The notes beneath the pieces were generated by a model. That model ran no database searches. It was not told where the DNA came from and saw only the letters and a program-made list of their open reading frames with translations. From Candidatus Melainabacteria bacterium 17Bon1m (GTDB taxonomy: Bacteria > Cyanobacteriota > Vampirovibrionia > Obscuribacterales > Obscuribacteraceae), in the NCBI GenBank assembly GCA_032128875.1, contig JAVLKG010000004.1, forward strand, positions 544,001 through 608,000: DNA of 64,000 nt, given 5' to 3'. Below, in pieces: positions 6,550 through 41,440 of this stretch. The translations under genes and the position numbers were made by a program. Position 1 is the stretch's first letter, and each line of letters starts with the position of its first letter.

Positions 6550-7617
6550 ATGTTGAGCCGCCAAACTCTTTACCAGTCAACATTTGCGTTATTGGCTTCG
6601 TTGCTCTGTGCGCTCCCGTGGTTCGCGCCTGCCCTCGCTAAAGAAGCGCCAACGGACGATATGGTCCTAATTCATGGTGGTCAGTTCATGATGGGAGGCG
6701 TTGGACCGCTTGCGCGAAAAGACGAATTTCCTCGGCATAAAGTGCGTGTGAAGAGCTTCTTCATCGACAAGACCGAAGTAACCAACGCACAATTCAAGAG
6801 ATTCATCGATGCCACAGGATACGTTACAACCGCTGAGAAGAAGCCAGATTGGGAAGAATTGAAGAAGCAATTGCCTGCAGGGTCAAAACCACCCGAAAAG
6901 GAACTACAGCCAGGCTCTCTCGTCTTTTCTGCGACCAAGGGTCCGGTTTCCCTGAGAGATTATTCTCAGTGGTGGAAGTGGGTAGATGGGGCAAACTGGC
7001 GGCATCCTGAGGGGCCATCTAGCTCAATTACAGGAAAAGACGATCATCCAGTCGTTCAAGTAAGCTGGGATGACGCAAATGCTTACTGCAAATGGGCTGG
7101 AAAACGACTGCCGACCGAGGCAGAATGGGAATACGCGGCTCGCGGTAACAAAGCATCAAAAGAATTCTCGTGGGGCGATAAAGCACCCTGCAATGCAAAC
7201 CCGCTCGCAAACCTTTGGCAGGGAGCCTTTCCCTACGAAAACAAAGGAACCGATAAGTACATCACCACTGCGCCGGTAAAATCGTTTTCGCCAAATGGAT
7301 ACGGGCTTTTCGACATGATTGGCAATGTATGGGAGTGGTGTTCAGACTGGTACAGAAGCGACTACTACGCCAGGTTGGCTACGAACGTATCAGTGAACCC
7401 GCAAGGTCCTACAGACAGCTACGATCCCGACGAACCCGAGTGTGAGAAGCGCGTCAAACGCGGTGGGTCTTTTCTGTGTTGCGAAAACTATTGCGCCAGC
7501 TATAGACCCTCCGCACGCATGAAGTGTTCACCGGATACCTCTCAAAATCACCTTGGTTTTCGTTGTGTCAAAGACGTTGAAATCAACACAGTTAAAGCCG
7601 TTAGAAGTGCAAATTAG
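6550..7617 (+). CDS. Formylglycine-generating enzyme (SUMF1/FGE-sulfatase family), exported
   Basis: RLPTEAEWEYAARG, GLFDMIGNVWEW, RGGSFLCCENYC and HLGFRC motifs; N-terminal signal peptide ending ALA. Confidence 0.92.
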   Translation: MLSRQTLYQSTFALLASLLCALPWFAPALAKEAPTDDMVLIHGGQFMMGGVGPLARKDEFPRHKVRVKSFFIDKTEVTNAQFKRFIDATGYVTTAEKKPDWEELKKQLPAGSKPPEKELQPGSLVFSATKGPVSLRDYSQWWKWVDGANWRHPEGPSSSITGKDDHPVVQVSWDDANAYCKWAGKRLPTEAEWEYAARGNKASKEFSWGDKAPCNANPLANLWQGAFPYENKGTDKYITTAPVKSFSPNGYGLFDMIGNVWEWCSDWYRSDYYARLATNVSVNPQGPTDSYDPDEPECEKRVKRGGSFLCCENYCASYRPSARMKCSPDTSQNHLGFRCVKDVEINTVKAVRSAN

Positions 7618-24083: not shown

Positions 24084-24165
24084 GGAATAGTGCCTGGAGG
24101 TCGGTTAGCTGCTACGGGAGTACCAAGAACCTTCCATTCAAGTATAAGCTTTGAATGTGACTTTT

Positions 24166-26334
24166 CTAGGGCGAGGAGCTCGAAGGGGCTCCCCTGTGCT
24201 CAGTGATGGAATCAGTAGGAGGAGGCGGAATGAGTCGTTTTGTGTTGGCATGTCCTAAGAATCCATGACCCTGCCATACAAAGTCAGTCAAGATAGATTG
24301 GTCGTGAGTGTAAGCGTCGCGGAAATACACCTCGATTTTCGGGTTGAATTCCTTGAGCTCTCGGATTATGTTTGCTTTGACAGTTGGCGACCATTCACGC
24401 AGCCCCAGTTCCACCTTCTTCAGATTTGGAAACTGTTTCAAAATGCCGACCACCTTTGGGGTAACTACGGTTCTCGACAAATCCAGCCATTCAAGAGATT
24501 TGATTGGCAGAAGATTGGCGACTCCTTTGTCCGAAATTGTATTGGTCGATAAGTCAATTACTCTCAGTGTTTTGCTTTTGGCTAAGCCCGCAATATCTGA
24601 GTCGGTAAAGCCGTTGACACTGACTATAATTTCGTAAAGCCTGGGAAACTTCGTGATGTTCTTGATGAAAGTCTCACAGCCATCTGTGTGACTCAGTTCT
24701 ATTCCGTTGAGATTGTAGATGTTGGGCAACTTAAGCATTTTTGCGCAATCAACGTCTGTATGCGACAAGTTGAGATACTGAAGCTTCTTAAACGCTCCCA
24801 GAACAGGCAAATCTCTGTCACTAAATGCGGTACCACTCACATTGAGAATGCGCATGTCCTCAAACTTCTTAATTGCGTTGAAATAGCTTGAATCGACTGT
24901 TTCTGCATTGAAATCAAAGACAGAAATCTCGTCCGGTCTGAATTTATCGATATATTCAGGCGTAATGAAATCACCGGCAACAAATCCGGTCTTCATATTT
25001 ATAGGAGCGGTAACCCGTCCACGAGCCAGACCAGTAGAGCCATTTGCCGCAATCAGAAGTCCAACTACTTTATTGTCAGGGAAATAGAAAGTCTTCTTTG
25101 TCTTTCCAGGATGAGCTCTATCCGGTTCTATTTGTGACCAGTACTCGCTTCCCTGTTGATTGAGCTGCGGTTGCACCGGAGCCGGTTCCACCAGAGCTGT
25201 TTTCATACCTTGCTTATTCATTACGTACATAAGCGCGTACAAGCTTGCTGCGCCCAGTAGATACATAGACACACCAAACACCGCCAGTTTCGACAGAGTC
25301 ATTGTTTTCAATGCTCGTGCTACTGCTGTCTTGAAACTATTTTCGGGAGTTACGGAAAGAAGAACAGGGTTTTGTCTGGTGATTTCTTGCTTGTTCTCAT
25401 CGATAGCTCGCTCCAGTGCAATGAGATCGCTGGCCAGAAGATTGGCTGATTGATAGCGATTGTCAGGATCTTTTTCCAACAACTTGCAGATAATCGCTTC
25501 TAGCGCGGCTGGATAGCTCACTCCTAAGGATGCTTCCTTGAGACTCAATTGAACATCGCTTTGATGTTTCATCATTGTTGCCAGCGCTGTTTCGCCCATA
25601 AAAGGAGGCGCGCTCGTCAAAGCTTCATAAAATACGCAGCCCAGAGAATACAGATCTGACCGATGGTCGACAGGCAGCCCTGCACATTGCTCCGGACTCA
25701 TGTAGAAAGGACTGCCGAAGACTTCACCAGTGCGCGTCAACGTCTGCTGATTGAATTCATCCACTCCGGTAAGTTTTGCTATTCCGAAATCGACAACTTT
25801 AATCCCTTCAACTTCGTTTTCGCTCTTAGGCGGCACTAACATGATATTGCTAGGCTTCACGTCACGGTGAATAATCTTTCGCTCGTGTGCGTATCCCAGT
25901 GCGAAAGCTACTTGAATAAAAATGCGCACGGCGCGATCGATAGGCAAGTGGGCGATTGCTTTGATCTCGTCAGCTAAGGTCCTGCCTTCCACAACCTCCA
26001 TCAGAAAGAAAGGTTGTCCGCTATCCAACAATCCCAGTTCGAAAACTTTCAAGAGGTTGGGATGGTCAAGCATGTAGGCTGCTTTTGCTTCATTTTGAAA
26101 ACGCCGCCAGCTGGCGTTTTCTTCCTGAAACTTATTCATGCACTTAAGTGCAAACTGTCTTTCCATCAAAAGATGGTCTACGCGATAGACACTGCCCATG
26201 CCGCCTGCGCCCAGAAGCTCAATGACGCGAAACTTTCCCGAAAGAATAGTTCCCGGTTCTATGAATGGACCCATGATTGGATTCATTGCATAGGTACGTT
26301 CGCTTGTCGGCGTGATTTCTTGATAGGACCCCAT
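24166..26334 (-). CDS. Hanks-type Ser/Thr kinase - TM - LRR receptor (array copy 4)
   Basis: GAGGMG, HRDVKPSN, DFG; TM LAVFGVSMYLLGAASLYALMYV; LRRs (LQYLNLSHT, LEWLDLSRT). Confidence 0.93.
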   Translation of the reverse strand: MGSYQEITPTSERTYAMNPIMGPFIEPGTILSGKFRVIELLGAGGMGSVYRVDHLLMERQFALKCMNKFQEENASWRRFQNEAKAAYMLDHPNLLKVFELGLLDSGQPFFLMEVVEGRTLADEIKAIAHLPIDRAVRIFIQVAFALGYAHERKIIHRDVKPSNIMLVPPKSENEVEGIKVVDFGIAKLTGVDEFNQQTLTRTGEVFGSPFYMSPEQCAGLPVDHRSDLYSLGCVFYEALTSAPPFMGETALATMMKHQSDVQLSLKEASLGVSYPAALEAIICKLLEKDPDNRYQSANLLASDLIALERAIDENKQEITRQNPVLLSVTPENSFKTAVARALKTMTLSKLAVFGVSMYLLGAASLYALMYVMNKQGMKTALVEPAPVQPQLNQQGSEYWSQIEPDRAHPGKTKKTFYFPDNKVVGLLIAANGSTGLARGRVTAPINMKTGFVAGDFITPEYIDKFRPDEISVFDFNAETVDSSYFNAIKKFEDMRILNVSGTAFSDRDLPVLGAFKKLQYLNLSHTDVDCAKMLKLPNIYNLNGIELSHTDGCETFIKNITKFPRLYEIIVSVNGFTDSDIAGLAKSKTLRVIDLSTNTISDKGVANLLPIKSLEWLDLSRTVVTPKVVGILKQFPNLKKVELGLREWSPTVKANIIRELKEFNPKIEVYFRDAYTHDQSILTDFVWQGHGFLGHANTKRLIPPPPTDSITEHRGAPSSSSP

Positions 26335-26383
26335 GCAAATGATCTACCCGAATCACCCGCTGCATATGTATTTCGCTAATTGA

Positions 26384-28561
26384 CTACAATTTGGGGATCT
26401 CGACAAACTTGGTTAAGTCAAGGTCAGTGTACGATCTTACGCTTTTCCCCTTCCATGGCAATTCAGGCAGGCATGCGTCCAAATCAGTGGTACTGACGTC
26501 TTTCCAAATTGTTTCGATATCAGGTCTGTGCTTTCTAATGTACTGTTCGAATTGTCTTTTCTCGTCCGTATTGAAAACAGCGCCTAGTTCTATTTTTTTC
26601 AACGCAGGAAATCTTGCCAGAATCTCACAACAATTTGGTTGAATGGCAGTCTGAGTAAGATCGATCCATTGCAATGTTTTGAGCGGTAGCAGCTTTTCCA
26701 GCCCATTGTTTGTGATGCCGTTATGCGCGAATGACAAAACCTTTAGCGACTTACTCTTAGCGATATTAGCCAGATCGCTGTCACCTAAATCGAAACTCCC
26801 AGCAATCACAAGAGATTTCAATTTCGGCAATTTGGGAACCATCGCCGCAAATTTGTCGCCATCACTGGCGCCAGCTATATCCAGGCAAGCCAAGTTTTGA
26901 AGAATCGGCAATCGCAAAATTTCAATGCAAGTAACACGTGTCGTTGCCAGATTTAGATAGCGAAGATTCTTCAATCCGGCAATGTTGGGCAAGTCTTCAT
27001 CTTTAAAGTCGGTACCGCTGAGATTGAGAATCTTAAGACCAGTGAGACGTCTCAAATGCTTATAAACCTCAGGGTTTATCTGTCTGGCACCCCCAAGGCT
27101 AAGAACTTGTAGGTCATCTGGTCGGAAGCCATCCAATAATTCCGAGTGTTCTATGACATTTTTGTTTGTTAGCAATCCAACGGGCTTTCCGATGGGGACC
27201 TTTACAACGCCTTTTGCCGGCTCACGTGAGCCATCTTCAAACTCTAGCTCGCCTAGAGATTTATCTTCCGGAAAGTGAAACTCGACAAACTGCTTTGTTC
27301 GCGTCGTCCACGGCTTAATCTGCACCTTCATGGATGGGACGGGAGCTGGCGTTATTTTTGTGGAATTGTTAGGACTTGCAGCTCTTAGCCTAGGTTGAGA
27401 AATTTTCGGCGCTATGGTCTGCGTACTTACAAGCCAATAGCAAATAATCAACCCCAGAACAAATGTAAGAGAACAGGCACCGATCGTTATATAGATACTT
27501 GGCGCAATTGCCAGTTTCTCCTTTTCCATTTCGATTTTGTGCGCAGCATTGCTCAGAGCTGCTTTTACGATGGTTGCCTCATCACCGCTCAACGTTTTTT
27601 CCAAAAGAATCAAATCTTCCGCCAAGTTATTTGCTGATTGATAACGATTGTCTGGATTTTTCTCTAACAACTTTTCGATAATGGTCTGAATTTGTTCGGG
27701 GAAATCGTCTCCCATTGAAGCTTCTTTGAGCGACAGCGGAACGTCGGATTGATGTTTTAACATCGTTGAAAGTGCGCTGTCACCGATGAAAGGTGGTGCT
27801 CCAGTGAGCGTTTCATAAAACACGCAACCGAGCGAATAAAGATCAGAGCGATGATCGACCGCAATTCCCATGCATTGTTCGGGGCTCATGTACAGCGGAC
27901 TGCCAAATATTTCTCCTGTCTTTGTAAGCGTTTGCTGATTGAACTCATCAACACCAGTGAGTTTTGCAATTCCAAAATCAACGACCTTCACAATTTCTTG
28001 TTCTTGCTCATAGTGAGGTTTTGCCAGCATGATATTGCTGGGTTTCAAATCTCTGTGGACAATCTTGTGGTTGTGCGCGTATTGGATAGCAAAGGCAACG
28101 TGGATGAAAATCTTGAGCGCCCGTCCCAACTCCAATTTTCCTTGTTTCTTTATCTCATCGGCAAGGGTAGGACCATCCACCAATTCCATAAGGAAATATG
28201 GTTGACCGCCGGGCAAAAGTCCGAAATCATAAACGCGAATCAGATTCGCATGATCAAGCATGTGCGCAGCTTTCACTTCATTCTGAAAGCGTCTCCAAGT
28301 GCCATCGTTTGTTTGGGCTTTGCTCAAACATTTAAGAGCGTAGATGCGATTGACCAGCAGATTCTCAACACGATAAACGCTGCCCATCCCCCCTCTTCCA
28401 AGCAAATCAATGATGCGATACTTCTCCAAGATAATCTCGCCGGCGGCCAACACCACATGCGGTTGCATTGTGACATTCAAGGTCGTGTCACACGAAGCGG
28501 CATCCGCTTGCTCAAGCGACAGCTCTAAGTCGTTGTCTTTTTCCTTTGACTCTTCTGCCAC
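26384..28561 (-). CDS. Hanks-type Ser/Thr kinase - TM - LRR receptor (array copy 3)
   Basis: GRGGMG, HRDLKPSN, DFG; TM IYITIGACSLTFVLGLIICYWLV; LRRs (LKILNLSGT, LRYLNLATT). Confidence 0.93.
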   Translation of the reverse strand: MAEESKEKDNDLELSLEQADAASCDTTLNVTMQPHVVLAAGEIILEKYRIIDLLGRGGMGSVYRVENLLVNRIYALKCLSKAQTNDGTWRRFQNEVKAAHMLDHANLIRVYDFGLLPGGQPYFLMELVDGPTLADEIKKQGKLELGRALKIFIHVAFAIQYAHNHKIVHRDLKPSNIMLAKPHYEQEQEIVKVVDFGIAKLTGVDEFNQQTLTKTGEIFGSPLYMSPEQCMGIAVDHRSDLYSLGCVFYETLTGAPPFIGDSALSTMLKHQSDVPLSLKEASMGDDFPEQIQTIIEKLLEKNPDNRYQSANNLAEDLILLEKTLSGDEATIVKAALSNAAHKIEMEKEKLAIAPSIYITIGACSLTFVLGLIICYWLVSTQTIAPKISQPRLRAASPNNSTKITPAPVPSMKVQIKPWTTRTKQFVEFHFPEDKSLGELEFEDGSREPAKGVVKVPIGKPVGLLTNKNVIEHSELLDGFRPDDLQVLSLGGARQINPEVYKHLRRLTGLKILNLSGTDFKDEDLPNIAGLKNLRYLNLATTRVTCIEILRLPILQNLACLDIAGASDGDKFAAMVPKLPKLKSLVIAGSFDLGDSDLANIAKSKSLKVLSFAHNGITNNGLEKLLPLKTLQWIDLTQTAIQPNCCEILARFPALKKIELGAVFNTDEKRQFEQYIRKHRPDIETIWKDVSTTDLDACLPELPWKGKSVRSYTDLDLTKFVEIPKL

Positions 28562-28613
28562 ATCGACCTCAGAAAAGGGGCAATAGAGCTCCTATTTCAG
28601 TATATTCCTCGAT

Positions 28614-30779
28614 TCACTTAAGGTTGCCAGCGTCCCACTTGAAGTCAGGAAGATTCTTCGCCAAGTCAGAGGTCTCCTCATCGGTCCAAAAGACTTTGAT
28701 GGAAGGCAGCTTTTGTTTTAACGCCTTTTCAAATGTCCGCTTTTGCTCCCCAGTCCAATCTAAATCGCCTAATTCGAGCTTTTTAAGTCCAGGCATCTCA
28801 CGCAAACTCTCAATGCAATTCGGCGAAACCGCAGTCGCAGATAAGTCAAGCCACGTCAGGTTTTTCATGTCCTTAAGATAACTGACACCAGCGTCCGTAA
28901 TATCTTTGTTTTGCGAAACACACAACACTCGCAGCGGATTGCACTGAGAAATGTCTTTCATCAGAACATCGTCCAATTGGCAATTTTGCATCTGCAGTTC
29001 ATACAAATTGGGTAGTTCGCCAAGCGTCTTACAAAACGGCACCATGCCTTGATTGTTAGATATGTCAATGGCGTTGAGATTGGATAAGACAGGTGACTTT
29101 ATGAGTGCATCGCCGTGCACTTGCGTATCGTTGAAATTCGCATAGCGCAGATTACTAAGTTTATCCAAGCTAGAAATCGCCGAATTATTGAAGAGCGTGT
29201 GTTTTGCGTTCAACGCCTTTAGGCTGGTCATATGTGCAATGTAAGAGAATCCTGCCGCTTTGAAGTGCGGAGCAGAACTAAAATTGAGAAAGACCAGGTC
29301 GTCCGGAGCAAATCCCATAAGCAATTCCGGAGCATCCAGTGCATTGTTTCTCACCAGCAATGACAATCTTCTCTGCTTGGGGAATTTCTTCTCCCCTTCC
29401 GCTTCGCAGATGAAGGCAAAATCGTCGATGATAGAACCCATGCAGATACCTTTGGGAAAGGTCAACACACGATTTTCACCATCAATTTTTGAAAAACTTC
29501 CGAGAGCTGGTGGAGCAATTTTCTTTTCTGCATCCGCTGATGACTGAAAGGACGCCTGGGCTGTTGACGTAGTCGCAAAAGGTGATTCCTTCGACATACG
29601 CTCTTCGTAAAACGTTTTAAGTTCTTTTATTTGGTTGCTCAAAGCAAAATAGCAGACTGTTGCGCCTGCTGCTGCACCAAGAAGAGCTGCCGCTGCGGCA
29701 ATCAGAAGTGTGTTATTGGTAAAACTCTGCCCGCCTTTTGTAGCTGTTTTGCCGCGGTCTGCCCGCAATTCTCCAATTTGCTGTGGGGGCGAACTGCTAC
29801 TTTCTCCGCTCAGGCTGCGCTCCAGCTCAATCAGATCGGCAGCAAGTGAGTTCGCTTTTTGATAGCGGTCATCAGGATCTTTCTCGAGAAGTTTGGCAAT
29901 GATCTTTTCCAATCCAATCGGAAAACCAATGCCCATTGATGCTTCTTTCAATGAAAGCGGCGGCTCCTGCTGGTGTTTCATCATGGTGGCAATGGCTGTG
30001 TCACCGATAAAAGGAGGCGCACCGGTAAGAGCTTCGTAAAAGAGACAACCAAGCGAATACAAGTCGCAGCGGCTGTCTATACCAGTGCCCGCGCATTGCT
30101 CTGGGCTCATGTATAGAGGACTGCCAAATATTTCGCCGGTCTTTGTCAGTGTTTGTTGATTGAATTCGTCAACGCCGGTCAATTTTGCGATACCGAAATC
30201 GACTACCTTGACTGATTCTTCTCCGTTTTTGTTTTCCAGCATAATATTGCTGGGTTTCAAATCTCTGTGAATAATGCGATGGTCGTGCGCATAATGAATG
30301 GCAAATGCTACTTGTATGAAAATCTTGATAGCACGCTTCATTGGCAGGCGTCCGAGCTTCCTGATTTCGTCAGCCAGAGTTACCCCTTCGACCAGCTCCA
30401 TAAGGAAATAAGGACGTCCACCAGGCAAAAGTCCGAATTCGAATACGCGAAGCAAGTTGGCGTGATCCAGCATGTTTGCTGCTTTTGCTTCGTTCTCAAA
30501 ACGGCGCCAGTTGATGTCGTTGCGATGGCACTTGTTCAAGCATTTCAGTGCGTACTGCTGGTTCATAAACAAGTGATCAACCTTGTAGACGCTACCCATG
30601 CCGCCTACGCCTAACAATTCCAAAATCTTGAACTTTTCCAGAAGGATAAGTCCGGGTTGAATTTCGGCAGGAGCTTGTGCCTGCAAAGACATTGTCGTGT
30701 CGGCAAAAGGCAATCCTTCGCGAAGTGGTGATTCTTGCGACTCAGTCATGCTCGTCTTTTCTTCTTCAGCCTCGGTCAT
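28614..30779 (-). CDS. Hanks-type Ser/Thr kinase - TM - LRR receptor (array copy 2)
   Basis: GVGGMG, HRDLKPSN, DFG; TM LLIAAAAALLGAAAGATVCYFAL; LRRs (LTWLDLSAT). Confidence 0.93.
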   Translation of the reverse strand: MTEAEEEKTSMTESQESPLREGLPFADTTMSLQAQAPAEIQPGLILLEKFKILELLGVGGMGSVYKVDHLFMNQQYALKCLNKCHRNDINWRRFENEAKAANMLDHANLLRVFEFGLLPGGRPYFLMELVEGVTLADEIRKLGRLPMKRAIKIFIQVAFAIHYAHDHRIIHRDLKPSNIMLENKNGEESVKVVDFGIAKLTGVDEFNQQTLTKTGEIFGSPLYMSPEQCAGTGIDSRCDLYSLGCLFYEALTGAPPFIGDTAIATMMKHQQEPPLSLKEASMGIGFPIGLEKIIAKLLEKDPDDRYQKANSLAADLIELERSLSGESSSSPPQQIGELRADRGKTATKGGQSFTNNTLLIAAAAALLGAAAGATVCYFALSNQIKELKTFYEERMSKESPFATTSTAQASFQSSADAEKKIAPPALGSFSKIDGENRVLTFPKGICMGSIIDDFAFICEAEGEKKFPKQRRLSLLVRNNALDAPELLMGFAPDDLVFLNFSSAPHFKAAGFSYIAHMTSLKALNAKHTLFNNSAISSLDKLSNLRYANFNDTQVHGDALIKSPVLSNLNAIDISNNQGMVPFCKTLGELPNLYELQMQNCQLDDVLMKDISQCNPLRVLCVSQNKDITDAGVSYLKDMKNLTWLDLSATAVSPNCIESLREMPGLKKLELGDLDWTGEQKRTFEKALKQKLPSIKVFWTDEETSDLAKNLPDFKWDAGNLK

Positions 30780-30785
30780 GCTCTA

Positions 30786-32906
30786 TTACAAACCTTCTCC
30801 CTTCCAATCAAAATCGAGGCAAAATTCAGGAGTGCTGCTTTCCGGACTGCCAAGAAAAAGTTTTACTTTGGGCAATGCTTTTCTGAGCGCCATGACGGCA
30901 CTCTTCGACGTCATATCGTTAGACAATCCGAGATGAGTTAGATTGGGGAGTTGACGCAGTGAATCAAGACATTTCATGTCCGCAGAAGTGCCGCAAAGAT
31001 CGAGATATTTCAAGTCTTTCAATTTGGTCAAATGTTTCACACCCTCATTGGTCACGCCCATGTTTTGACCGACAGCGAGCGCTCTCAGCGTGCGAGCTTT
31101 GGCAATCTGCTTAAGAGTATCGTCAGTAAGACTGTCTCCGTGCAACGCTAGCTGGTAGAGTCTTGGCATCTCTTCAATGCGTTCTAAAAATGTCTCGATA
31201 TTTTGAATGCCGCCTGCGTGAAGAGAAGTCAGCTTGGACAAAAACTTCATCGAGGCCAGCCCATTGCCTGTAATTGTCGTCATGCTCACATTGAGATAAC
31301 TCACATTAGGAAGCGAATCCAGATATTTTAGGTCCGAGTCGCTGAAGTCGGAAAACTTGACGTTGAGTGCTTTTAGGCCGGTTAAGTGAGTTAGCGCAGA
31401 GAAGACTTTCGATATCGCCATATCATTTCGCGACATGAATACTAACGTGAGATCATTAGGTCCGAATTTCTTCAACAAGAGCGGATTTTTTGCCAGCGCA
31501 TCGTAAGTGGGATTGAAACCGATGAGCTGATCGTGTGGTACACGGACTTCACCAATGCAGTTGACTCCAGGCTTGTCGGAGAAGAGAAACGCGCCGATTG
31601 GTGTTTTTGGAAAGAGGAAAACTCTTTCTTTGGTTGCCGGATCAATGTGCGAAAACGGCTTTTCATCGAGAGTCGGAGCGCTAGCGCGTGGTTGAGACTC
31701 TATGACAATAGGACGTTTTCTTGCACGCTCCGCATCCAATTCGCCCTGCAGAAGCACAAAGCTGACGCCCATTCCTGCTAGAAATGCGGCGGCGCCGATT
31801 ATTCCCTGTCCAATCGGATTGCCTGCAAAAATAGACTGTTCTTTCGGAATGTAGGCAGCTCTATTACCGCTTTTGGAACCATCTGCCACCGTGCCCGAAG
31901 CAGCTCTATCGTATTTGAGATGACTTTCCAGTTGGATGAGGTCTTGAGCCAGGAGACTCGCATTCTGATAGCGCTGATTTGGATCTTTCTCCAAGAGTTT
32001 CGCCACAATTCGCTCCAGCTCAATGGGATAGTCAATGCCCATCGATGCTTCTTTGAGGGAAAGAGGCGGCTCGGACTGATGCTTCATCATTGTAGCCAGC
32101 GCGCTGTCACCAATAAATGGCGGTGCGCCTGTCAACGCTTCGTAGAACATGCAACCAAGAGAATACAAATCACTGCGTGAGTCTACAACCAAACCCATGC
32201 ACTGCTCAGGGCTCATGAACAGAGGACTGCCGAAGATTTCTCCCGTTTTTGTAAGAGTCTGCTGGTTGAATTCATCTGCACCCGTCAATTTAGCAATGCC
32301 GAAATCGACTACTTTGACAATTTCTTCTTCGACTCCGTCCTTCTGGGTTTTGACGACCATGATGTTGCTTGACTTCAAATCACGGTGAATGACTCCATTC
32401 TCGTGGGCGTAAGCCATTGCAAAGGCAACCTGGATAAAAATCCGAATGCATCGCTTGACAGGCAGCCTGCCGATGCGCTGAATCTCTTCGGCAAGCGTCG
32501 TGCCCTCCACGAAGTCCATGACGAAATAGGGACGGCGCCCAGGCATCAGTCCAAAGTCGTGGACTTTTATCAAACTGGGGTGGTCAAGAATATGGGCTGC
32601 TTTGGCTTCGTTCTGAAATCGGCGCCAGGTATCGGATTTTGGCTGTTCTTTATTGAGGCACTTAAGCGCAAATACTGTCCCCAGATGAACATGAGTGACG
32701 CGAAAGACACTGCCTACGCCGCCGACACCAACCAGCTCCACGACTTTGTATCTATCCAGGACAACCGAACCCGGCTCCAAAACAACAGGAGCAATCGTTT
32801 CCTCCACCCATGTGGAGTTGCCGGTGCCGCCAAAAGCTGAGCCCTTGGGCTTATCACCCTGTGACTTTTCTTCTTTCTCTCGATTTGTGGACGGATTGTC
32901 TGTCAT
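30786..32906 (-). CDS. Hanks-type Ser/Thr kinase - TM - LRR receptor (array copy 1)
   Basis: GVGGVG, HRDLKSSN, DFG; TM IIGAAAFLAGMGVSFVLL; LRRs (LKYLDLCGT). Confidence 0.93.
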   Translation of the reverse strand: MTDNPSTNREKEEKSQGDKPKGSAFGGTGNSTWVEETIAPVVLEPGSVVLDRYKVVELVGVGGVGSVFRVTHVHLGTVFALKCLNKEQPKSDTWRRFQNEAKAAHILDHPSLIKVHDFGLMPGRRPYFVMDFVEGTTLAEEIQRIGRLPVKRCIRIFIQVAFAMAYAHENGVIHRDLKSSNIMVVKTQKDGVEEEIVKVVDFGIAKLTGADEFNQQTLTKTGEIFGSPLFMSPEQCMGLVVDSRSDLYSLGCMFYEALTGAPPFIGDSALATMMKHQSEPPLSLKEASMGIDYPIELERIVAKLLEKDPNQRYQNASLLAQDLIQLESHLKYDRAASGTVADGSKSGNRAAYIPKEQSIFAGNPIGQGIIGAAAFLAGMGVSFVLLQGELDAERARKRPIVIESQPRASAPTLDEKPFSHIDPATKERVFLFPKTPIGAFLFSDKPGVNCIGEVRVPHDQLIGFNPTYDALAKNPLLLKKFGPNDLTLVFMSRNDMAISKVFSALTHLTGLKALNVKFSDFSDSDLKYLDSLPNVSYLNVSMTTITGNGLASMKFLSKLTSLHAGGIQNIETFLERIEEMPRLYQLALHGDSLTDDTLKQIAKARTLRALAVGQNMGVTNEGVKHLTKLKDLKYLDLCGTSADMKCLDSLRQLPNLTHLGLSNDMTSKSAVMALRKALPKVKLFLGSPESSTPEFCLDFDWKGEGL

Positions 32907-33874: not shown

Positions 33875-34714
33875 TTGTTTCGGGTGTTTATTTCGGGAAT
33901 TTCGTTGGCCGTAGGTGTTTACGTAGCTCTTGCTCCGCGCATGGCTCGTCCCTTGTACCGCCAATTCTTGTTTCATCCCGATCCTTACCCGCAAGATATC
34001 GAGACGGCTCCCATTCTAGGCGGCGTTCAAGGAGAGGATGTCTACTTCCTCTCACGTAAAGGGCGTCGTTTGCACGGCTGGATCTTCGAAAAACCGGGCG
34101 CCCGCGACTGGATGCTTGTTAGCCACGGCAATGCCGGCAACATCGCCAATCGAATGGAGCTAATTCATCTGCTTCTGCGCGCCGGAGTTTCTGTCTTTAT
34201 CTATGACTATCAAGGCTATGGACGCAGCCAAGGAAAACCTGACATTCCCGACATTTGCTATGACGGCGAAGCAGCATACGATTTTCTGGTAGAGGAAAAG
34301 AATGTGCGGCAGGAAGAAATCATTCTGTACGGCGAATCCTTAGGCGCCTCAGTGGCCGGATACATTTCAAGAGTCCGGCGATCGAAAGGGCTCATTCTCC
34401 AATCTGGTTTTGCATCACTAGAGCGTATCGCCCGCGAGTCGCTTCCAATACTGCGCATTTATCCTGACTTTCTTTTCCCCCAGTCGTTTTTAAATAACAC
34501 GGCAGTTTTGCAGCAGCCGCATCCTCCCGTTTTAATTGCCCATGGATTGAACGATTCCGTAATCGATTTTGAGCACGCCAGCCATTTGTTCAAAACTGCT
34601 GTCGGGAAGAAAATTTTGTTAGAACTGCCGGAGAGCGCTCACAGCGACATAACCATAAGTGCGCCGGAAAAATTTCAGTCGGCGATTATGGAATTTCTTT
34701 CCGGGCTTTCTTAG
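33875..34714 (+). CDS. Alpha/beta hydrolase (ABHD/Bem46-like)
   Basis: HGNAGN, YDYQGYGRS, nucleophile GESLG, HG.ND and SAH motifs. Confidence 0.9.
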   Translation: MFRVFISGISLAVGVYVALAPRMARPLYRQFLFHPDPYPQDIETAPILGGVQGEDVYFLSRKGRRLHGWIFEKPGARDWMLVSHGNAGNIANRMELIHLLLRAGVSVFIYDYQGYGRSQGKPDIPDICYDGEAAYDFLVEEKNVRQEEIILYGESLGASVAGYISRVRRSKGLILQSGFASLERIARESLPILRIYPDFLFPQSFLNNTAVLQQPHPPVLIAHGLNDSVIDFEHASHLFKTAVGKKILLELPESAHSDITISAPEKFQSAIMEFLSGLS

Positions 34715-34735
34715 TTTTGTTTTTCAACCAAGAAG

Positions 34736-37021
34736 TTATTTAGCCGAAACACCTTCACGACGAAGGCGGATCAAGTTCAGCGCCGAGCCGGCTTTGAACC
34801 AACCGATTTGCTCTTCGGTCATGGTGTGCTTCAACTCGATTTTGTCTTCGGTACCATCGGCATGGCGAATGACCATTTCGACATTCTTGCCGGGCGCGAT
34901 TTTAGCCAGATCGAGCAGGCTGACTCTGTCGGTTTCGCCAATCTTGTCGTAGTCTTCAGGTTTAACAAAAGTGAATGGCAAAATCCCTTGCTTCTTGAGA
35001 TTCGTTTCGTGAATTCGAGCAAAACTCTTTACCACGACTGCTTTGCAGTTGAGGAAGCGAGGCGACATCGCCGCGTGCTCACGGCTCGAACCTTCACCGT
35101 AGTTAAGATCGCCGACTGCAATCCAACCAAGACCGTTTGCTTTGTAGTTGCGTGCAACGGCTTGAAAAGCCTTTCTTTCGCCGTTCAACACATCCAGTCC
35201 GATACCGATATCTTTAGTGAATGCATTGGTCGCACCGCTAAACATGTTGTCGCTGATCTTGTCGAGGTGACCTCTATAGCGCAGCCAAGGACCAGCAGCC
35301 GAAATATGATCGGTGGTGCATTTGCCCAGTGCTTTCATCAAGATCGGCAAGTTCACGTAGTCTTTGCCATCCCAAGCTTCAAATGGCTCGAGCAACTGCA
35401 ATCTTTCTGAGGTCGGTTTTACATCGACTACAACTTTGTCGCCATCTTTAGCTGGTGGAATAAAACCAGTTTCGTCAGCAATAAAACCTTGCTCCGGAAG
35501 CTCTTGAGCAGTCGGTGGATTGAGCTTGAATTCCTTACCGTCTGTGCCTTTCAGCGTGTCGGTCAGGGGGTTGAATTTCAGGCTTCCAGCCAGAGCCAAG
35601 GCAGTGACGATTTCAGGACTGCCGATGAAAGCTAACGTTTCGGCGTTGCCATCATTTCTCTTTTGGAAATTTCTGTTGAAAGAAGTGATGATCGAATTTC
35701 TTTCGCCAGGTGTGATGTCATCTCTTTTCCACTGCCCAATGCACGGTCCGCAGGCATTGGCGAGCACCGTTCCACCGATTGTTTCTAACGTCTTCAATTG
35801 ACCATCTCTGCCGATGGTTTTGTAAATTTGCTCAGAACCAGGTGAGATAAGAAAACCGATGTCAGCTTTGACGCCGTGCTCACCAGCTTGGTTAGCCACA
35901 TGTGCAGCTCTGCCCATATCTTCATAAGAAGAATTTGTGCAGCTTCCAATCAACGCATATTTCAGATGCTCGGGATATCCCTTCTCGTCTACTTCTTTAG
36001 CCAGCGCTGAGATTGGGCGTGCCAGGTCGGGGGTGTGTGGTCCGACAACATATGGTTCGAGCGTATCGAGATCGATCTCGATGACTTGGTCGAAGTAGTT
36101 CTTGTAGTCTTTTTCTACTTCAGGATCGGCTACCAGGTGTTCTCTGTATTGCTCTGCCAGTGCGGCAATCTCTTCGCGCTTTGTAGCGCGCAGGTATTTC
36201 GCCATTCGATCGTCGAACGGGAAGATGGAGGTTGTAGCGCCAAGCTCGGCACCCATGTTTGTAATTGTGCCTTTACCTGTGCAGCTAATCGATTCGGTTC
36301 CGGGTCCGAAGTATTCGACAATAGCGCCAGTACCGCCTGCTACAGTCAGGATGCCAGCCAGTTTCAAAATTACATCTTTAGGTGCTGTCCAGCCATTCAA
36401 CTTTCCAGTCAGACGAACACCAATAAGCTTGGGCCATCTAACGCCCCATGGTTCGCCCGCCATCACATCCACAGCATCGGCGCCGCCGACACCAATCGCT
36501 ATCATGCCTAGACCGCCGGCATTAGGTGTATGCGAGTCAGTACCGATCATCATGCCGCCAGGAAAAGCGTAATTTTCCAAAACGACCTGGTGGATAATTC
36601 CCGAGCCCGGCTTCCAAAAGCCGATGCCATGCTTCTCGGCAGCGGTGCGCAAGAAGTTGTAGACCTCGGAATTTTCACTGAGAGCATTTTCCATGTCTTT
36701 GTCTGCGCCCACTCTGGCAAGGATCAAGTGGTCGCAGTGAATGGTCGAAGGGACAGCGACTGTCTTCAACTTGGCTTGCATAAATTGCAGTACTGCCATT
36801 TGAGCTGTCGCATCTTGCATCGCCACACGGTCCGGACGCAAGAGGGCATAACTTTCTCCACGCTTCGGGTGCTTCTCTGAAGCGTCCCAGTGGTCAAGGT
36901 GAGCCGTGAGGATTTTCTCTGCCAGGGTCAAGCCACGCCCAAACCGCTTGCGAGCCTCAGCATGCTTTTCAGGCAATGACTCATAGATTTTCTTGATGTC
37001 GTTGGCGCTAAGTTCAGTCAT
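34736..37021 (-). CDS. acnA: Aconitate hydratase, mitochondrial-like class
   Basis: [48 protein letters not shown] and [10 protein letters not shown]. Probable ATG at 37021 with SD GAGGG. Confidence 0.95.
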
Positions 37022-37120
37022 CGGCGTGCCCTCTTCATTCAATATGTGGATATATTGATCTTATCGTGAACAGAGGCTCTAAGCCCCAAAATTTAGGGTT
37101 ATTGCGCATTTCTAAAATTC

Positions 37121-37151
37121 GGGAGGCTGGTCTTGATAACACCAGCCTCCC
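37121..37151 (-). terminator. Intrinsic terminator-like hairpin downstream of the ESESGG peptide gene
   Basis: Perfect 11-bp stem GGGAGGCTGGT/ACCAGCCTCCC followed on the minus strand by GAATTTT. Confidence 0.7.
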
Positions 37152-37193
37152 TGAATTATGTTTGCTTCGGACTGCCGAAACCCAGATGGTGAC

Positions 37194-37601
37194 TTAGTAG
37201 TTTCTGATTTCTACACCAGGTCCGCCGGACTCGGATTCATTTCCTGCATTGCCTGGTCCGCCACTTTCACTGGAGCCGCCAGCGTTGTAAACACCGCCGC
37301 TTTCAGAAGAGCCACCCGAAGCACGAGCGCCACCTGTTTCGGATTCATTGCCTTGATCTGTCGGTCCGCCTGACTCGGATTCTTGTTCTCCGCCGTAGAC
37401 ACCGCCAGATTCAGATTCTCCGCCACCGAAGAAAACTCCACCCGACTCCGATTCAAGTTGGGTCATTTTCACAGGCGAGTTGACAGGGAGATTATTTTGA
37501 CCGAAGCCGTTGTCAAATGCCTTGGCTGATGGGCAATAGGTCAAGATCAGAGCGGCGGCTGCAATAACTGCATAGGCCGGATACTCATTTGTTTTCAACA
37601 T
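37194..37601 (-). CDS. Exported small protein with seven 12-aa-periodic [ES]SE[ST]GG cassettes
   Basis: SD GAGGA; signal peptide ending AKA; repeats visible in the translation and at 36-bp spacing in the DNA. Confidence 0.85.
   Translation of the reverse strand: MLKTNEYPAYAVIAAAALILTYCPSAKAFDNGFGQNNLPVNSPVKMTQLESESGGVFFGGGESESGGVYGGEQESESGGPTDQGNESETGGARASGGSSESGGVYNAGGSSESGGPGNAGNESESGGPGVEIRNY
37221..37454 (-). repeat. 36-bp-period coding repeat (7 conserved 18-nt blocks separated by variable 18-nt blocks)
   Basis: Conserved blocks start at 37221, 37257, 37293, 37329, 37365, 37401 and 37437; variation is largely synonymous. Confidence 0.9.
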
Positions 37602-37634
37602 CTCATTTTCCTCAATTTGAAAAACTTGTCGTGC

Positions 37635-38489
37635 CTAGCGGGGATCTGCGACTTTGGTGGAAGACGGTGTGAAACCCATCTTCTTTGCAGTCTCCGAGTC
37701 GCTTTGTGCCTGTTTGTCTTTGCCGACTGCTTTGTAGCTCAGCCCACGGTGATGGTAGACGTGTGCCAAGCGACCGTTGTATTTCAATGCCTTGGAGTAA
37801 TCATCGACTGCTTTGTCGTGATAGCCCTGTTTGGCAAGCGATCTTGCGCGGTTGACGTACGCGGCTGACAGCTTGGGATTGATTTGCAAAGCGAGTGTTG
37901 CGGCATCAGCGGCATCGTTGTTATTGCCTTGCATATGCAGGGCGTGCGCCTTATTGACCAACGCCAACGCGCGTGCGTGAGGGGCTTTCATCCCAGCAGC
38001 TTTGTCAGCATCAGCAATCGCCTTGTCATATTGCTTCAAGCCGTTGTAAGCATGGGCTCTGTTAACGTAAGCCATCGGCATATTGGGATCGAGCTCAATA
38101 GCGCGATTGAGATCTTCGAGTGCTTCTTTGTACTTGCCGGTTTTGTTATAGGCCCAACCGCGATTAACATACGCAGCAGAAGCCTTTGCATCCAACTGGA
38201 TGGCCTTGCCGGCATCTTCAATTGCAGCGCTATAGCGACCCAAGCGATCATTTACCAGGGCGCGATTGCAGTAAGCTTTGGCGCTGTTCGGATTGGCTTT
38301 GATTGCTTCATCGAGCTTGCTGCAAGCATCTTTGTACTTGTCCTTTTTCATCAGGTTTTCTGCGTTCTTAATTGCATCCGTGGACGGGTCCGCTGACGCG
38401 GCACAAAGACCTGCTGTCGAAGCCAATGCGGCTATCGACAATGCGGAAAGAAACGAGCGAGCATATAGCGAGCCACTCGGTGATTTCAT
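37635..38489 (-). CDS. Exported TPR-repeat protein
   Basis: Strong SD AGGAGG before ATG 38489; signal peptide ending ASA; about 7 TPRs (AYCNRA, AYVNRG, AYVNRA...). Confidence 0.92.
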   Translation of the reverse strand: MKSPSGSLYARSFLSALSIAALASTAGLCAASADPSTDAIKNAENLMKKDKYKDACSKLDEAIKANPNSAKAYCNRALVNDRLGRYSAAIEDAGKAIQLDAKASAAYVNRGWAYNKTGKYKEALEDLNRAIELDPNMPMAYVNRAHAYNGLKQYDKAIADADKAAGMKAPHARALALVNKAHALHMQGNNNDAADAATLALQINPKLSAAYVNRARSLAKQGYHDKAVDDYSKALKYNGRLAHVYHHRGLSYKAVGKDKQAQSDSETAKKMGFTPSSTKVADPR

Positions 38490-38721
38490 CTTGAAAATCC
38501 TCCTAAACCTGATGTCTTGCGGAATTTGCATGCCTGCAAGTGAAGTTTGAATTGCGGTTTATCCCACAATATTCTTGCAGGCGCAAAGCCCTTTAACAGA
38601 ATGTTTAATTGCCGCTTATCAATTCTTATCCCACCTCCTGAAGCCTAGATTCCTAGCCAGGCCTACAGTGTAGGGTTTTCATGTGGGGGAAGTGTGAGGA
38701 CTAAACTGCCATCTTGAGCAG

Positions 38722-40014
38722 TCAAGAAGAATTTTTTGCTTCTTTAATTCGCTTCACCAGTTCAACTTTCGCTCGATCTAGTTGATTGTCGTTAGAGCTT
38801 GTTTTGTCGTTCTCGACATTAATATCAGGTTCTACACCGATGCCTTCCAATCGAACGCCCGAGAGCGAACAATCAAGAATCGCTAGATAGAGAAAACACT
38901 TGTCGTTTATCGGTTCCATCGAGCCGGCTAAGAAATAGCCGGCGGTCCGATCGCCAATTAGAAGAGCTCTTTTGGTTTTCTTCAGCGCATATGCCAGTTC
39001 TTCTTTTCCACTTCGTGAGCCACCATTGGCGATGGCGACCATTGGCTTGTTGAAGATGACAGTCGAAACACGTTTTTTTCCGTTGCGATCGGTGGTCTCA
39101 AAATCCGGATAGGCAGCGGCTTGACGAAAGAACGGATCGAGGGCATCCGGAGAGCAAGCACCATACCCATCTCGTAAATCAAGAATAAGACCGTCGCAGT
39201 CTCTTAAAATTCGCTGAAAAAGAACATCTCCCATGGCTTCCTGAGCCTTAGAACCCCCACACCATAAATGCACATAGCCGAGCGTCTGTCCGTCGACAGT
39301 GAAGCGGCGAACGCTCTTGGTCACTGCATTGACATACATGTCATACATGGGCTTCTTTGCCACTTTGACAGACACGGTGATTTTTTCCGTGCCGCGCAAC
39401 AGCTCAATTTGAGCAGGTTGATTTCCCAAGGCAAAGAAATTTGCCAAGCCGACGTATTTGTTGCCGTTGACGGAAAGAATCTTGTCAGCGACCTGAATAT
39501 GCGCCTTTTCGGCTGGTGAATCATTTAAAACAAAGCGCACCCGGTTATGCTCGAATCCTGCGCCGCCAGTCACAAAACCAGGAAAGAAGCATTCACCTTT
39601 CGATCTGTTTTCGTTATTGAAAAGAGAATAGAGAAAATAGTATGTGTCGTCATTGACGGTGAGAAAGCGACAATGACTGCTTTTCAGCTCATCAATTGCG
39701 ACATTCAATGCAGTCGAAAGTTCAATCAGATTCTTCGCTGCAAGAATCTTCCCTCTCTGCTTTTCCAAAGCCTGAGGCCAAACGTTTTGACTGAGATCCT
39801 TTGAATAGAGCGATTTTCTCACGTGTTTATCGACAGCATCAATGACGCTGCTATTGAAATTTCTATCGCAAGTCAAAGAGGAAAGCGGATCAGCAGCAGT
39901 AGCCTTCACGCTTTCAACAGCCGGCGATGGCTGAAGAGCGTAGGCGAACAACAAAGCGACTGAGAGAATGTTCAGAAATTTGGAATTTGTGCGATTGTAA
40001 TTTGCAGGCAGCAA
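38722..40014 (-). CDS. Exported S41 family peptidase with PDZ domain
   Basis: SPAEKA..QVADKILSVNG (PDZ), GYVHLW, LILDLRDGYG, SRSGKE, IGDRTAG and EGIGVEPDI. Confidence 0.88.
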   Translation of the reverse strand: MLPANYNRTNSKFLNILSVALLFAYALQPSPAVESVKATAADPLSSLTCDRNFNSSVIDAVDKHVRKSLYSKDLSQNVWPQALEKQRGKILAAKNLIELSTALNVAIDELKSSHCRFLTVNDDTYYFLYSLFNNENRSKGECFFPGFVTGGAGFEHNRVRFVLNDSPAEKAHIQVADKILSVNGNKYVGLANFFALGNQPAQIELLRGTEKITVSVKVAKKPMYDMYVNAVTKSVRRFTVDGQTLGYVHLWCGGSKAQEAMGDVLFQRILRDCDGLILDLRDGYGACSPDALDPFFRQAAAYPDFETTDRNGKKRVSTVIFNKPMVAIANGGSRSGKEELAYALKKTKRALLIGDRTAGYFLAGSMEPINDKCFLYLAILDCSLSGVRLEGIGVEPDINVENDKTSSNDNQLDRAKVELVKRIKEAKNSS

Positions 40015-40090
40015 CGTATGATCATTCTCCGTATTTAGAACTTGCTCCGCTTGACGAGTTTCATAATAGCGGATTGCCTATGAGCCTTGC

Positions 40091-41440
40091 ATGACCACCG
40101 AGAGTGAAACTAAAAACGGCCAGGCTGCTGCTAATGCATCCGAGCACGCGCCATGCAAGATACCGCCGGCTGTTTTTATTCCCACCCTCTACTTTATGGA
40201 AGGGTTGCCGTACACCATAGTCAATATGATGGCGGTAGTTTTCTACAAGAATCTCGGCGCCAGTAATGAATTTATTGGTGCGGTGACAAGCGTCCTTTCC
40301 TTTGCCTGGACGTTGAAATTCATCTGGGCTCCGCTTATCGATATTTATGGAACCAGACGCGGATGGATTGTGGTAGCACAGCTGGTGCTGTCAGCAATGT
40401 GCGCCCTCTTAGCTGGATCTGCTTTCCTGCCGGACAGCATTGCCCTGTCCGTGGGCGCCTTGGCTTTGATTGCGCTGGCATCTGCCACTCAAGATGTGGC
40501 CATAGATGGCTACTACATGGACGTTTTGAACAAGCAACAGCAGGCTGTCTATGTAGGTGTGAGAAATGCAATCTACAAAATCGCTGTATTGGTGGGACAA
40601 GGACCGCTTGTTATGCTTGCCGGTTTCATTGCCGCTTCATCCGGAAAGATCAACTATTCATCAGGCTGGGCCACATCGTTCTTCGTATGCTGTGCGCTCT
40701 TTTTCTCTTTCGGCCTTTTGCATCTATTTATACTGCCGAAAATAGAGAGTCCCGAGACAACAGGAAAGGCGCAAGGTGAGAAAGTTGATCTTGTGCAAGG
40801 TTTGAAACGCTTTGGCAGCGTGCTCCAGACTTTTGTTGACCAGGATCGAATTGCAGTCATTTGCTTGTACATATTTATATTCAGATTCGGCGATGCGCTG
40901 ATGCTGAAAATGACGATGCCTTTTCTTCTTGATGGAAAGTCGAATGGAGGTCTTGCCATTTCAACCCAAGACGTCGGACTTATATATGGAACGGTTGGTC
41001 CGATCTTCTTATTGTTGGGCGGCTTGCTTGGCGGTTATCTGGTAGCGAAGTTTGGTCTGAAAAAGGTATTGATGCCGACCGCCCTCGTTCAGAGCGGAGC
41101 CATACCTTTATATTGGGCGCTCGCTTATTTCAAACCACAGGATCATGCCTGGATTTATGCAGCCAACTCATTCGAGCAATTCTCTTACGGCTTAGGTACT
41201 GCAGCTTATACGGTCTTTCTTTTGTCAGTCGTGAAACCGGAGTATAAGGCCGCACACTATGCAATTGCCACGGCAATAATGGCTCTCGGTCTCATTGTTC
41301 CTGGCTATATAAGCGGTTATATGACTACGTGGTTGGGCTACCCGAACTTTTTCCTGGTTAGTTTTCTCGCTTCGATTCCTGGAATCATCACAATCTTCTT
41401 TTTGCCAATTAAATCCAGCGAAGAAAAAATGGCTGCATAA
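40091..41440 (+). CDS. ampG: AmpG-like muropeptide MFS transporter
   Basis: LYFMEGLP, WTLKFIWAPLID and ASATQDVAIDGY signature. Confidence 0.85.
   Translation: MTTESETKNGQAAANASEHAPCKIPPAVFIPTLYFMEGLPYTIVNMMAVVFYKNLGASNEFIGAVTSVLSFAWTLKFIWAPLIDIYGTRRGWIVVAQLVLSAMCALLAGSAFLPDSIALSVGALALIALASATQDVAIDGYYMDVLNKQQQAVYVGVRNAIYKIAVLVGQGPLVMLAGFIAASSGKINYSSGWATSFFVCCALFFSFGLLHLFILPKIESPETTGKAQGEKVDLVQGLKRFGSVLQTFVDQDRIAVICLYIFIFRFGDALMLKMTMPFLLDGKSNGGLAISTQDVGLIYGTVGPIFLLLGGLLGGYLVAKFGLKKVLMPTALVQSGAIPLYWALAYFKPQDHAWIYAANSFEQFSYGLGTAAYTVFLLSVVKPEYKAAHYAIATAIMALGLIVPGYISGYMTTWLGYPNFFLVSFLASIPGIITIFFLPIKSSEEKMAA

Follow-up and report, generated by a model that had tools for sequence, protein, structure and literature searches.

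Multi-core secreted precursors, such as those of the cyanobactin PatE type, the fungal dikaritin/Kex2 type and yeast alpha-factor, alternate constant with less conserved segments, begin with a signal peptide in the fungal cases, and vary in core copy number. In RRNPP pairs (Rap-Phr, PlcR-PapR, AimR-AimP) a small exported protein with a conserved C-terminal end is encoded beside a co-inherited tetratricopeptide repeat (TPR) protein, and the known RRNPP peptides derive from the C-terminal end of the exported precursors. The RTX beta-roll, built from nonapeptide repeats of the form GGxGxDxUx that match Pfam HemolysinCabind, is exported and carries Gly-Gly and acidic residues at a strict short period; AlphaFold2 usually models RTX rolls and curli subunits with high confidence. 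TPR grooves commonly hold extended or C-terminal peptides. In E. coli, according to passages of PMC5686067, NlpI, a TPR lipoprotein, serves the PDZ protease Prc as the adaptor for its substrate, with Prc recognizing the bound C terminus, and, according to passages of PMC11789061, NlpI is modulated by the periplasmic protein BipP. We analyzed a 64,000-nucleotide stretch of Candidatus Melainabacteria bacterium 17Bon1m, a member of the Obscuribacteraceae (contig JAVLKG010000004.1, positions 544,001 to 608,000 of the forward strand; hereafter the window), in which an open reading frame (ORF), here called REP, encodes a small, predicted exported protein of seven 12-residue units. The reading that we favor, and to which we give roughly an even chance, is that REP is a disordered polyanionic protein of the envelope and the client or ligand of an exported TPR protein encoded next to it. 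The Obscuribacteraceae are uncultured, and the REP-TPR pair offers a handle on the envelope biology of a non-photosynthetic sister lineage of the cyanobacteria.

REP resembles each of these systems in part. Like the multi-core precursors it alternates constant and less conserved segments, and like the fungal ones it has a signal peptide, but it has no linked processing enzymes, its unit number is fixed, its units are position-specific and its termini are the most conserved parts; it also lacks dibasic sites and the recognition sequences of those systems. As in RRNPP pairs, a small exported protein with a conserved C-terminal end lies beside a co-inherited TPR gene, whereas here the TPR protein is itself predicted to be exported and has no effector domain, and REP is two to three times longer and consists mostly of constrained repeats. 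In the window's genus only, a TPR protein, a PDZ-bearing S41 peptidase beside it and a small, putatively periplasmic protein with a defined tail recall NlpI-Prc with its clients MepS and BipP, as outlined in the passages cited above; in contrast to that system, both the TPR protein and the peptidase fall below NCBIfam cut-offs, the TPR protein is not a lipoprotein, and the peptidase is unlinked in the 20 distant loci of other genera. REP shares with the RTX beta-roll the Gly-Gly and acidic residues, the strict short period and export, but its period is 12 rather than 9, it has no Pfam match and no predicted roll, and its export signal is of the Sec and not the type I kind. One source names a homologue (P0028) as the MSCRAMM adhesin SdrC, with which it has Ser and acidic low-complexity repeats in common; P0028 lacks the LPXTG motif, the A domain and the Ser-Asp run, is about 120 amino acids long and belongs to a diderm lineage, and the name looks like a low-complexity artefact.

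An exported protein with seven 12-residue units

The original prediction, made from the letters of the window, had described an exported peptide of seven 12-residue cassettes with a strict period of 36 nt, and this was confirmed in a 135-amino-acid ORF on the minus strand. The gene, its parts and its signals are as follows, in window coordinates.

37194..37601, minus strand: REP, a predicted exported, acidic 12-residue-repeat protein of 135 amino acids, recognized from the ORF and its family conservation
37518..37601, minus strand: Sec-type signal peptide, residues 1-28, ending in A-K-A, read from the sequence and the family alignment
37455..37517, minus strand: 21-residue spacer between the signal peptide and unit 1, in close orthologues only
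37203..37454, minus strand: seven 12-residue units, residues 50-133, with the consensus [ES]-S-E-S-G-G-[VPA]-x-[NGD]-[STG]-G-[AGS]
Units 1-7 in order: ESESGG-VFFGGG, ESESGG-VYGGEQ, ESESGG-PTDQGN, ESETGG-ARASGG, SSESGG-VYNAGG, SSESGG-PGNAGN, ESESGG-PGVEIRNY
37197..37220, minus strand: conserved C-terminal tail PGVEIRNY; the family motif is hydrophobic-[IV]-[RKQH]-x-Y, optionally followed by x-W or G-R
37609..37613, minus strand: Shine-Dalgarno-like GAGGA, 7 nt 5' of the ATG, read from the sequence
37121..37151, minus strand: intrinsic-terminator-like hairpin with an 11-bp GC-rich stem and a 9-nt loop, followed by TTTT, found by folding

The protein runs as MLKTNEYPAYAVIAAAALILTYCPSAKA, FDNGFGQNNLPVNSPVKMTQL and then the seven units, which start exactly 12 residues (36 nt) apart. 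Its signal peptide has an MLK start and a hydrophobic stretch before A-K-A, and in the family alignment A28 of the signal-peptidase site is invariant and A26 is present in at least 90% of the rows. The claims of a signal for export, an own Shine-Dalgarno sequence and an own terminator were all borne out. The terminator hairpin lies 43 nt past the stop codon and has a folding energy of −37.3 kcal/mol (z −4.4), with 0 of 200 shuffles as stable; owing to a loop longer than 8 nt it escaped a simple terminator scan. The mature chain of about 86-107 residues consists of ∼30% Gly, 21% Ser plus Thr and 17% Glu plus Asp and has a net charge of about −13, and mature REP proteins of the family range from −8 to −19, with a negative charge in 33/33.

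The repeat is present at the codon and protein level only and not as a DNA repeat: Tandem Repeats Finder reported none on the DNA. Ser at unit positions 2 and 4 uses TCN as well as AGY codons, the constant halves of the units are 65% identical in nucleotides as against 87% in amino acids, and the same codon is used in only 41 of the 110 identical-residue pairs between units. The low nucleotide and high amino-acid identity, together with the few shared codons, indicates that the copies are old and have been kept alike by selection at the protein level. The reading frame is kept in 12 orthologues, with ratios of non-synonymous to synonymous substitution (dN/dS) of 0.025-0.16 at a proportion of synonymous differences (pS) of 0.57-0.74, at which synonymous sites are saturated. 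By part, dN/dS in these orthologues was lowest in units 1-2 (0.025) and in the C-terminal tail (0.043) and higher in the constant halves of units 3-7 (0.135) and the 'variable' halves (0.161), so that the strongest constraint falls on both ends of REP, units 1-2 and the aromatic tail. The frame is evidently under purifying selection and the repeat not the product of chance; the earlier argument from the two Ser codon families for selection on the peptide holds in both the codon data and the dN/dS values.

The period is also kept among relatives. Strict motifs are spaced 12 residues apart in 127 of 182 cases, the remainder being mostly 24 or 36, and loose motifs in 286 of 373; the variable spacing among homologues that would have refuted the original prediction was not observed, and the array is not a sloppily spaced linker. 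All 12 orthologues have seven units and an array without an insertion or deletion, and of 76 relatives, 69 contain 5-7 units and in 67 the mature protein measures 84-102 amino acids. Such a fixed register, unit number and set of unit identities, maintained despite saturated synonymous sites, is unusual for a low-complexity repeat.

The description of each cassette as a constant plus a variable hexapeptide stands as regards the alternation and fails as regards full variability. Across 286 family units, position 11 is Gly in 85%, position 7 is V, P or A, and position 12 is A, G or S. Gly-11 is as well conserved as the 'constant' positions, which leaves only unit positions 8-10 free. Among proteins less than 60% identical, variable halves of the same index are more alike (0.376) than those of different index (0.249), and they also exceed the likeness among different units of one protein (0.274); the units are therefore not interchangeable cassettes. 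The 'pro-region' of ∼21 residues is present here without being a general feature of the family, as it is absent in 28 of 33 aligned relatives; in most relatives the mature protein opens with [DE]SE[SA]G (ESESGG or DSEAG) directly after the A-x-A site. Judged by this alignment, the spacer is a peculiarity of the window's genus. Every family member has a terminal aromatic motif, in clade-specific flavors (VEIRNY, YVQYYGR, GIKYYKW); the 12 orthologues show hardly any variation in PGVEIRNY, and the family alignment places hydrophobic caps at both ends of REP.

A word-seeded search returned 54 proteins at E≤0.1, all about 95-213 amino acids long, and those that carry a name are annotated as hypothetical, under Melainabacteria, Obscuribacterales or 'Cyanobacteria bacterium'. 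When a profile was run against 1.84 billion representative proteins, only 85 came up at E≤1e-3. The long matches P0069 and P0083 (E 1e-19 to 1e-10) proved on inspection to be unrelated low-complexity proteins. REP occurs in 72 of 401 genomes of the class and in 69 of 103 genomes of the window's own family (Obscuribacteraceae-like), nearly always as a single copy, and the window's own genome has a single REP locus. Scans of Pfam (E≤0.01) and NCBIfam gave REP no family match, a PDB profile search gave 0 matches at E≤1, and the best ESM Atlas score, 0.79, was uninformative. Among the papers listed for the motifs ESESGG, SESGG and SETGG in a full-text search, none is about such a protein; the literature listed for Obscuribacter concerned ecology and taxonomy, and none of that listed for periplasmic disordered Gly-rich repeats was relevant. 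REP is a small family without prior description that is all but confined to one family of Melainabacteria. A longer paralogous form of 207-271 amino acids (P0060, P0071, P0078, P0082, P0041) has the repeats and, internally, VP.VEVKNYSWP, past which it extends by ∼100 residues rich in Pro, Ala and Thr.

The exported TPR partner

One gene accompanies REP across genera.

37635..38531, minus strand: partner gene encoding a predicted exported, basic protein of seven TPRs, 33 nt upstream of REP on the same strand

The encoded protein has an N-terminal hydrophobic signal segment, TPR domains only, and no lipobox. Asn-Arg opens most repeats of the REP-linked TPR proteins, whose net charge lies between +6 and +21 and is positive in 24/24. 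In most genera the signal peptide of these proteins is followed, ahead of the first TPR, by a low-complexity segment rich in Lys (KKSKKSDK..., around columns 60-85 of alignment A3), which the TPR protein of the window's genus lacks.

The TPR gene is directly upstream of REP in 12/12 close (genus-level) loci, and among the 30 best loci from other genera 20 have it within 1.5 kb of REP. Among 20 distant loci inspected with ±8 kb of flank, TPR is the next ORF in 13, either co-directional or convergent; it lies one or two ORFs off in 2 and about 4.3 kb off in 2, and is absent or fragmentary in 3. In other genera the pair usually occupies a slot in the order phosphoribosyl pyrophosphate synthetase, metallo-beta-lactamase hydrolase, REP, TPR, SurA-like peptidyl-prolyl isomerase (PPIase) and Mfd. 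In the window's genome (G000) this slot is intact on contig C1 (749942-759588) without REP and TPR, and the gap holds an unrelated 389-amino-acid cytoplasmic TPR_12-like ORF. Since the slot lacks both genes on C1 and both are found together on C4, they have moved as a pair. Genome G298 contains two REP-TPR pairs on separate contigs (L053 and L063), one co-directional and one convergent, in which the TPRs are 45% and the REPs 47% identical.

A phyletic profile of TPR by E-value alone is unusable, given the many TPR paralogues, and slot inspection and a tree were used instead. In 10 REP-lacking genomes from 9 genera, TPR and REP are both missing from the slot (0/10 at E≤1e-3), while the PPIase gene is present in 10/10 and mfd in 9/10, the tenth contig ending before mfd. 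The best TPR candidates elsewhere in 4 REP-lacking genomes have no REP-like neighbor. The maximum-likelihood tree comprised all 24 rows of alignment A3, these 4 candidates and 8 paralogues, leaving out the best matches of three other REP-lacking genomes (ORFs of 570-670 amino acids). In it a branch with support 96/96 separates the 24 REP-linked TPRs from the 4 candidates and 8 paralogues. Orthologues of TPR differ by 60-70% between genera. On this comparative evidence TPR is the one persistent partner gene of REP: kept through inversions, moved with it, duplicated with it and missing with it.

In the favored reading, REP would be exported by Sec and lose its signal peptide, and the mature chain would remain in an extended, disordered state within the periplasm or envelope. 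Its fixed layout would consist of a hydrophobic N-cap (ESESGG-VFF-GGG-ESESGG-VY), five further 12-residue units, each presenting an invariant Glu flanked by Ser or Thr and followed by Gly-Gly, and an aromatic docking tail, VEIRNY. Together with the adjacent exported basic TPR protein it would form a two-gene module, in which the TPR protein most likely binds REP through the terminal motif, the acidic units or both in an Asn/Arg-lined groove and serves as its chaperone, anchor or receptor. We infer physical binding of the two proteins and their location in the envelope. The argument for binding is that the genes are co-inherited, co-translocated, co-duplicated and co-absent, that the charges are complementary (TPR basic, REP acidic), and that the terminal motifs are constrained, to which is added the general habit of TPR grooves. 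The Glu, Ser and Thr sites could possibly serve in cation binding, phosphorylation or glycosylation.

AlphaFold2 gave REP a predicted local distance difference test score (pLDDT) of 51.2 when run on an alignment of 33 sequences and 49.3 on one of 76, and neither run placed secondary structure outside the signal peptide. REP thus has the signal peptide, biased composition, lack of a predicted fold and conserved short linear motifs of an exported disordered tandem-repeat protein. A complex prediction for TPR residues 46-298 with mature REP 29-135, run as a single job without controls, scored 0.27 and 0.02, the mark being 0.32, and speaks neither for nor against binding.

Four points weigh against a disordered protein held by the TPR protein. 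In 3 of the 20 distant loci and in genus g2 the TPR orthologue lies 4-28 kb off or was not found nearby. All compared genomes belong to one family, and the adjacency may in part be inherited gene order. The lack of a fold in the AlphaFold2 models would still be compatible with folding on Ca2+, on oligomerization or on a partner, and a flexible linker would have no need of so strict a 12-residue register, with its invariant Glu and Gly.

Peptidase and kinase genes and the rival readings

Two further elements of the window enter into the alternatives.

38722..40014, minus strand: S41 C-terminal-processing peptidase with a PDZ domain, a neighbor in the window's genus only
21807-32906, minus strand: five tandem Ser/Thr-kinase/leucine-rich-repeat (LRR) genes encoding 706-758 amino acids each, 4-15 kb downstream of REP

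In 12/12 loci of the genus the order on one strand is S41(PDZ), TPR, REP, terminator and aconitase, and the S41 gene is present in 12/12 close as against 0/20 distant loci. The five kinases, 40-60% identical to one another, show the topology of receptor kinases: an N-terminal Ser/Thr kinase domain, a single predicted transmembrane segment at about residues 350-385, and LRRs at the C-terminal end. The array is visible in 8 of the 12 close loci, those long enough to contain it, and kinase matches occur in 2/20 distant loci.

The original prediction took REP for a multi-core precursor like those of ribosomally synthesized and post-translationally modified peptides (RiPPs), in which proteases would cut at [ES]SE[ST]GG and free hexa- to dodecapeptide signals, perhaps for the LRR kinases. 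The alternation of constant and variable segments at an exact period is a formal resemblance, and REP does have a signal peptide; proteases are encoded near it (S41 two genes upstream in this genus, a rhomboid protease in genus g9, an S9 peptidase in one g2 genome), and with one transmembrane segment between kinase and LRRs the latter probably face outwards. Exact constant/variable periodicity is, however, insufficient by itself to call a peptide-library precursor. Among 42 scanned window ORFs and 15 scanned neighbor ORFs of distant REP loci there is no maturase, C39 peptidase, ABC exporter, radical SAM, YcaO, Lan or ATP-grasp gene, and no candidate protease is conserved as a neighbor. Unit number and total length are fixed, the strongest constraint falls on the termini, and the cores are low-complexity, [VPA]x[ND][ST]G[AS], and neither diversifying nor strongly conserved (dN/dS 0.16). 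With low-information cores that contain an invariant Gly and are under purifying and not diversifying selection, the peptide library is unsupported, and we consider it quite improbable; the ligand role for the kinases, with which their topology is compatible, has no conserved linkage behind it beyond genus-level synteny. Proteolysis enters differently if the TPR protein presents REP to a tail-reading PDZ S41 peptidase, or if REP competes with the clients of such a system, as in NlpI-Prc. S41(PDZ), TPR and REP stand in a row on one strand throughout the genus, all three begin with a signal-like sequence, and the TPR protein is a partial match to NlpI (E 1.7e-13). That match, however, reaches only 50.7 bits where the NlpI cut-off stands at 250, the position of the would-be lipobox is without Cys in close relatives, and the peptidase is a short Ctp-type enzyme far under all NCBIfam cut-offs (TIGR00225 prc, 69.2 bits against 218.6). 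The absence of S41 from all 20 distant loci suggests a recent juxtaposition of the trio, and there is rather little chance that this is how the pair works. A more elaborate variant, in which the REP chain would be threaded along the seven-repeat TPR protein and cut by a protease (S41 here, rhomboid elsewhere) into dodecapeptides or the tail as signals to the LRR kinases, is very improbable indeed.

An RRNPP-type pair acting in the periplasm, in which only the tail (VEIRNY, YVQYYGR or GIKYYKW) would be cleaved as the ligand of TPR and the repeats would form a pro-region, accounts for an adjacent, co-inherited TPR gene and small exported precursor. The tail is among the most constrained parts of REP, and its flavor differs by genus, as do the TPR orthologues (60-70%). 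The TPR protein, however, has a signal peptide and no output domain, neither helix-turn-helix nor phosphatase, and the repeats are constrained (invariant Glu and Gly-Gly, dN/dS 0.025 in units 1-2), which would be unneeded in a disposable pro-region. Within the genus there is no pherotype diversification of the tail, PGVEIRNY being nearly the same in all 12 orthologues, and in the longer paralogues the motif is internal and not C-terminal. We regard this reading as unlikely. Also unlikely, in our estimate, is a fold that depends on a cofactor or on assembly, either a Ca2+ roll or solenoid in which each 12-residue unit makes one turn or the subunit of an envelope fiber or amyloid. The strict register and the invariant Glu-3, Gly-5, Gly-6 and Gly-11 are as in turn-forming repeats, and hydrophobic caps at both ends, a fixed length and acidic charge are consistent with it. 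Against it stand the two AlphaFold2 runs with pLDDT ∼50 and no secondary structure, the lack of a Pfam match to RTX, curli or other repeat families and of a PDB relative, and the single hydrophobic position per unit, which leaves little core. The original prediction had offered a structural repeat protein as its second option; this came nearer to the mark, except that the beta-solenoid it included gained no support from AlphaFold2. The disordered client or ligand of the TPR protein remains our preferred reading.

Other neighbors and RNA-labeled runs

REP and TPR are separated in genus g9 by a gene for a rhomboid-family intramembrane protease (Pfam PF01694, E 1.5e-34; L052 8487-9473, minus strand), and a REP-TPR distance of ∼1.5 kb suggests the same arrangement in other g9 genomes. 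Genome G009 of genus g2 has a gene of the S9 prolyl-oligopeptidase family with a PD40 repeat 13 nt after REP on the same strand (L044 6105-7982, minus strand); it was not seen at REP in the other inspected genome of g2 (L059). A GGDEF-like gene beside REP was rejected as a member of the module, being homologous in only 5/20 loci.

In the RNA-labeled runs X2-X4, positions 34000-41000 of the window lie inside contigs of 54-65 kb with even depth, and the sample is possibly the source of this DNA. Such long contigs of even depth behave like genomic DNA and give no sign of transcription. Run X18 yielded no contig over REP and five short contigs over aconitase, TPR and the edge of S41. An FGE-sulfatase (formylglycine-generating-enzyme-like) gene, for which no link to REP was seen, lies 30 kb from it at 6550-7617 on the plus strand of the window.

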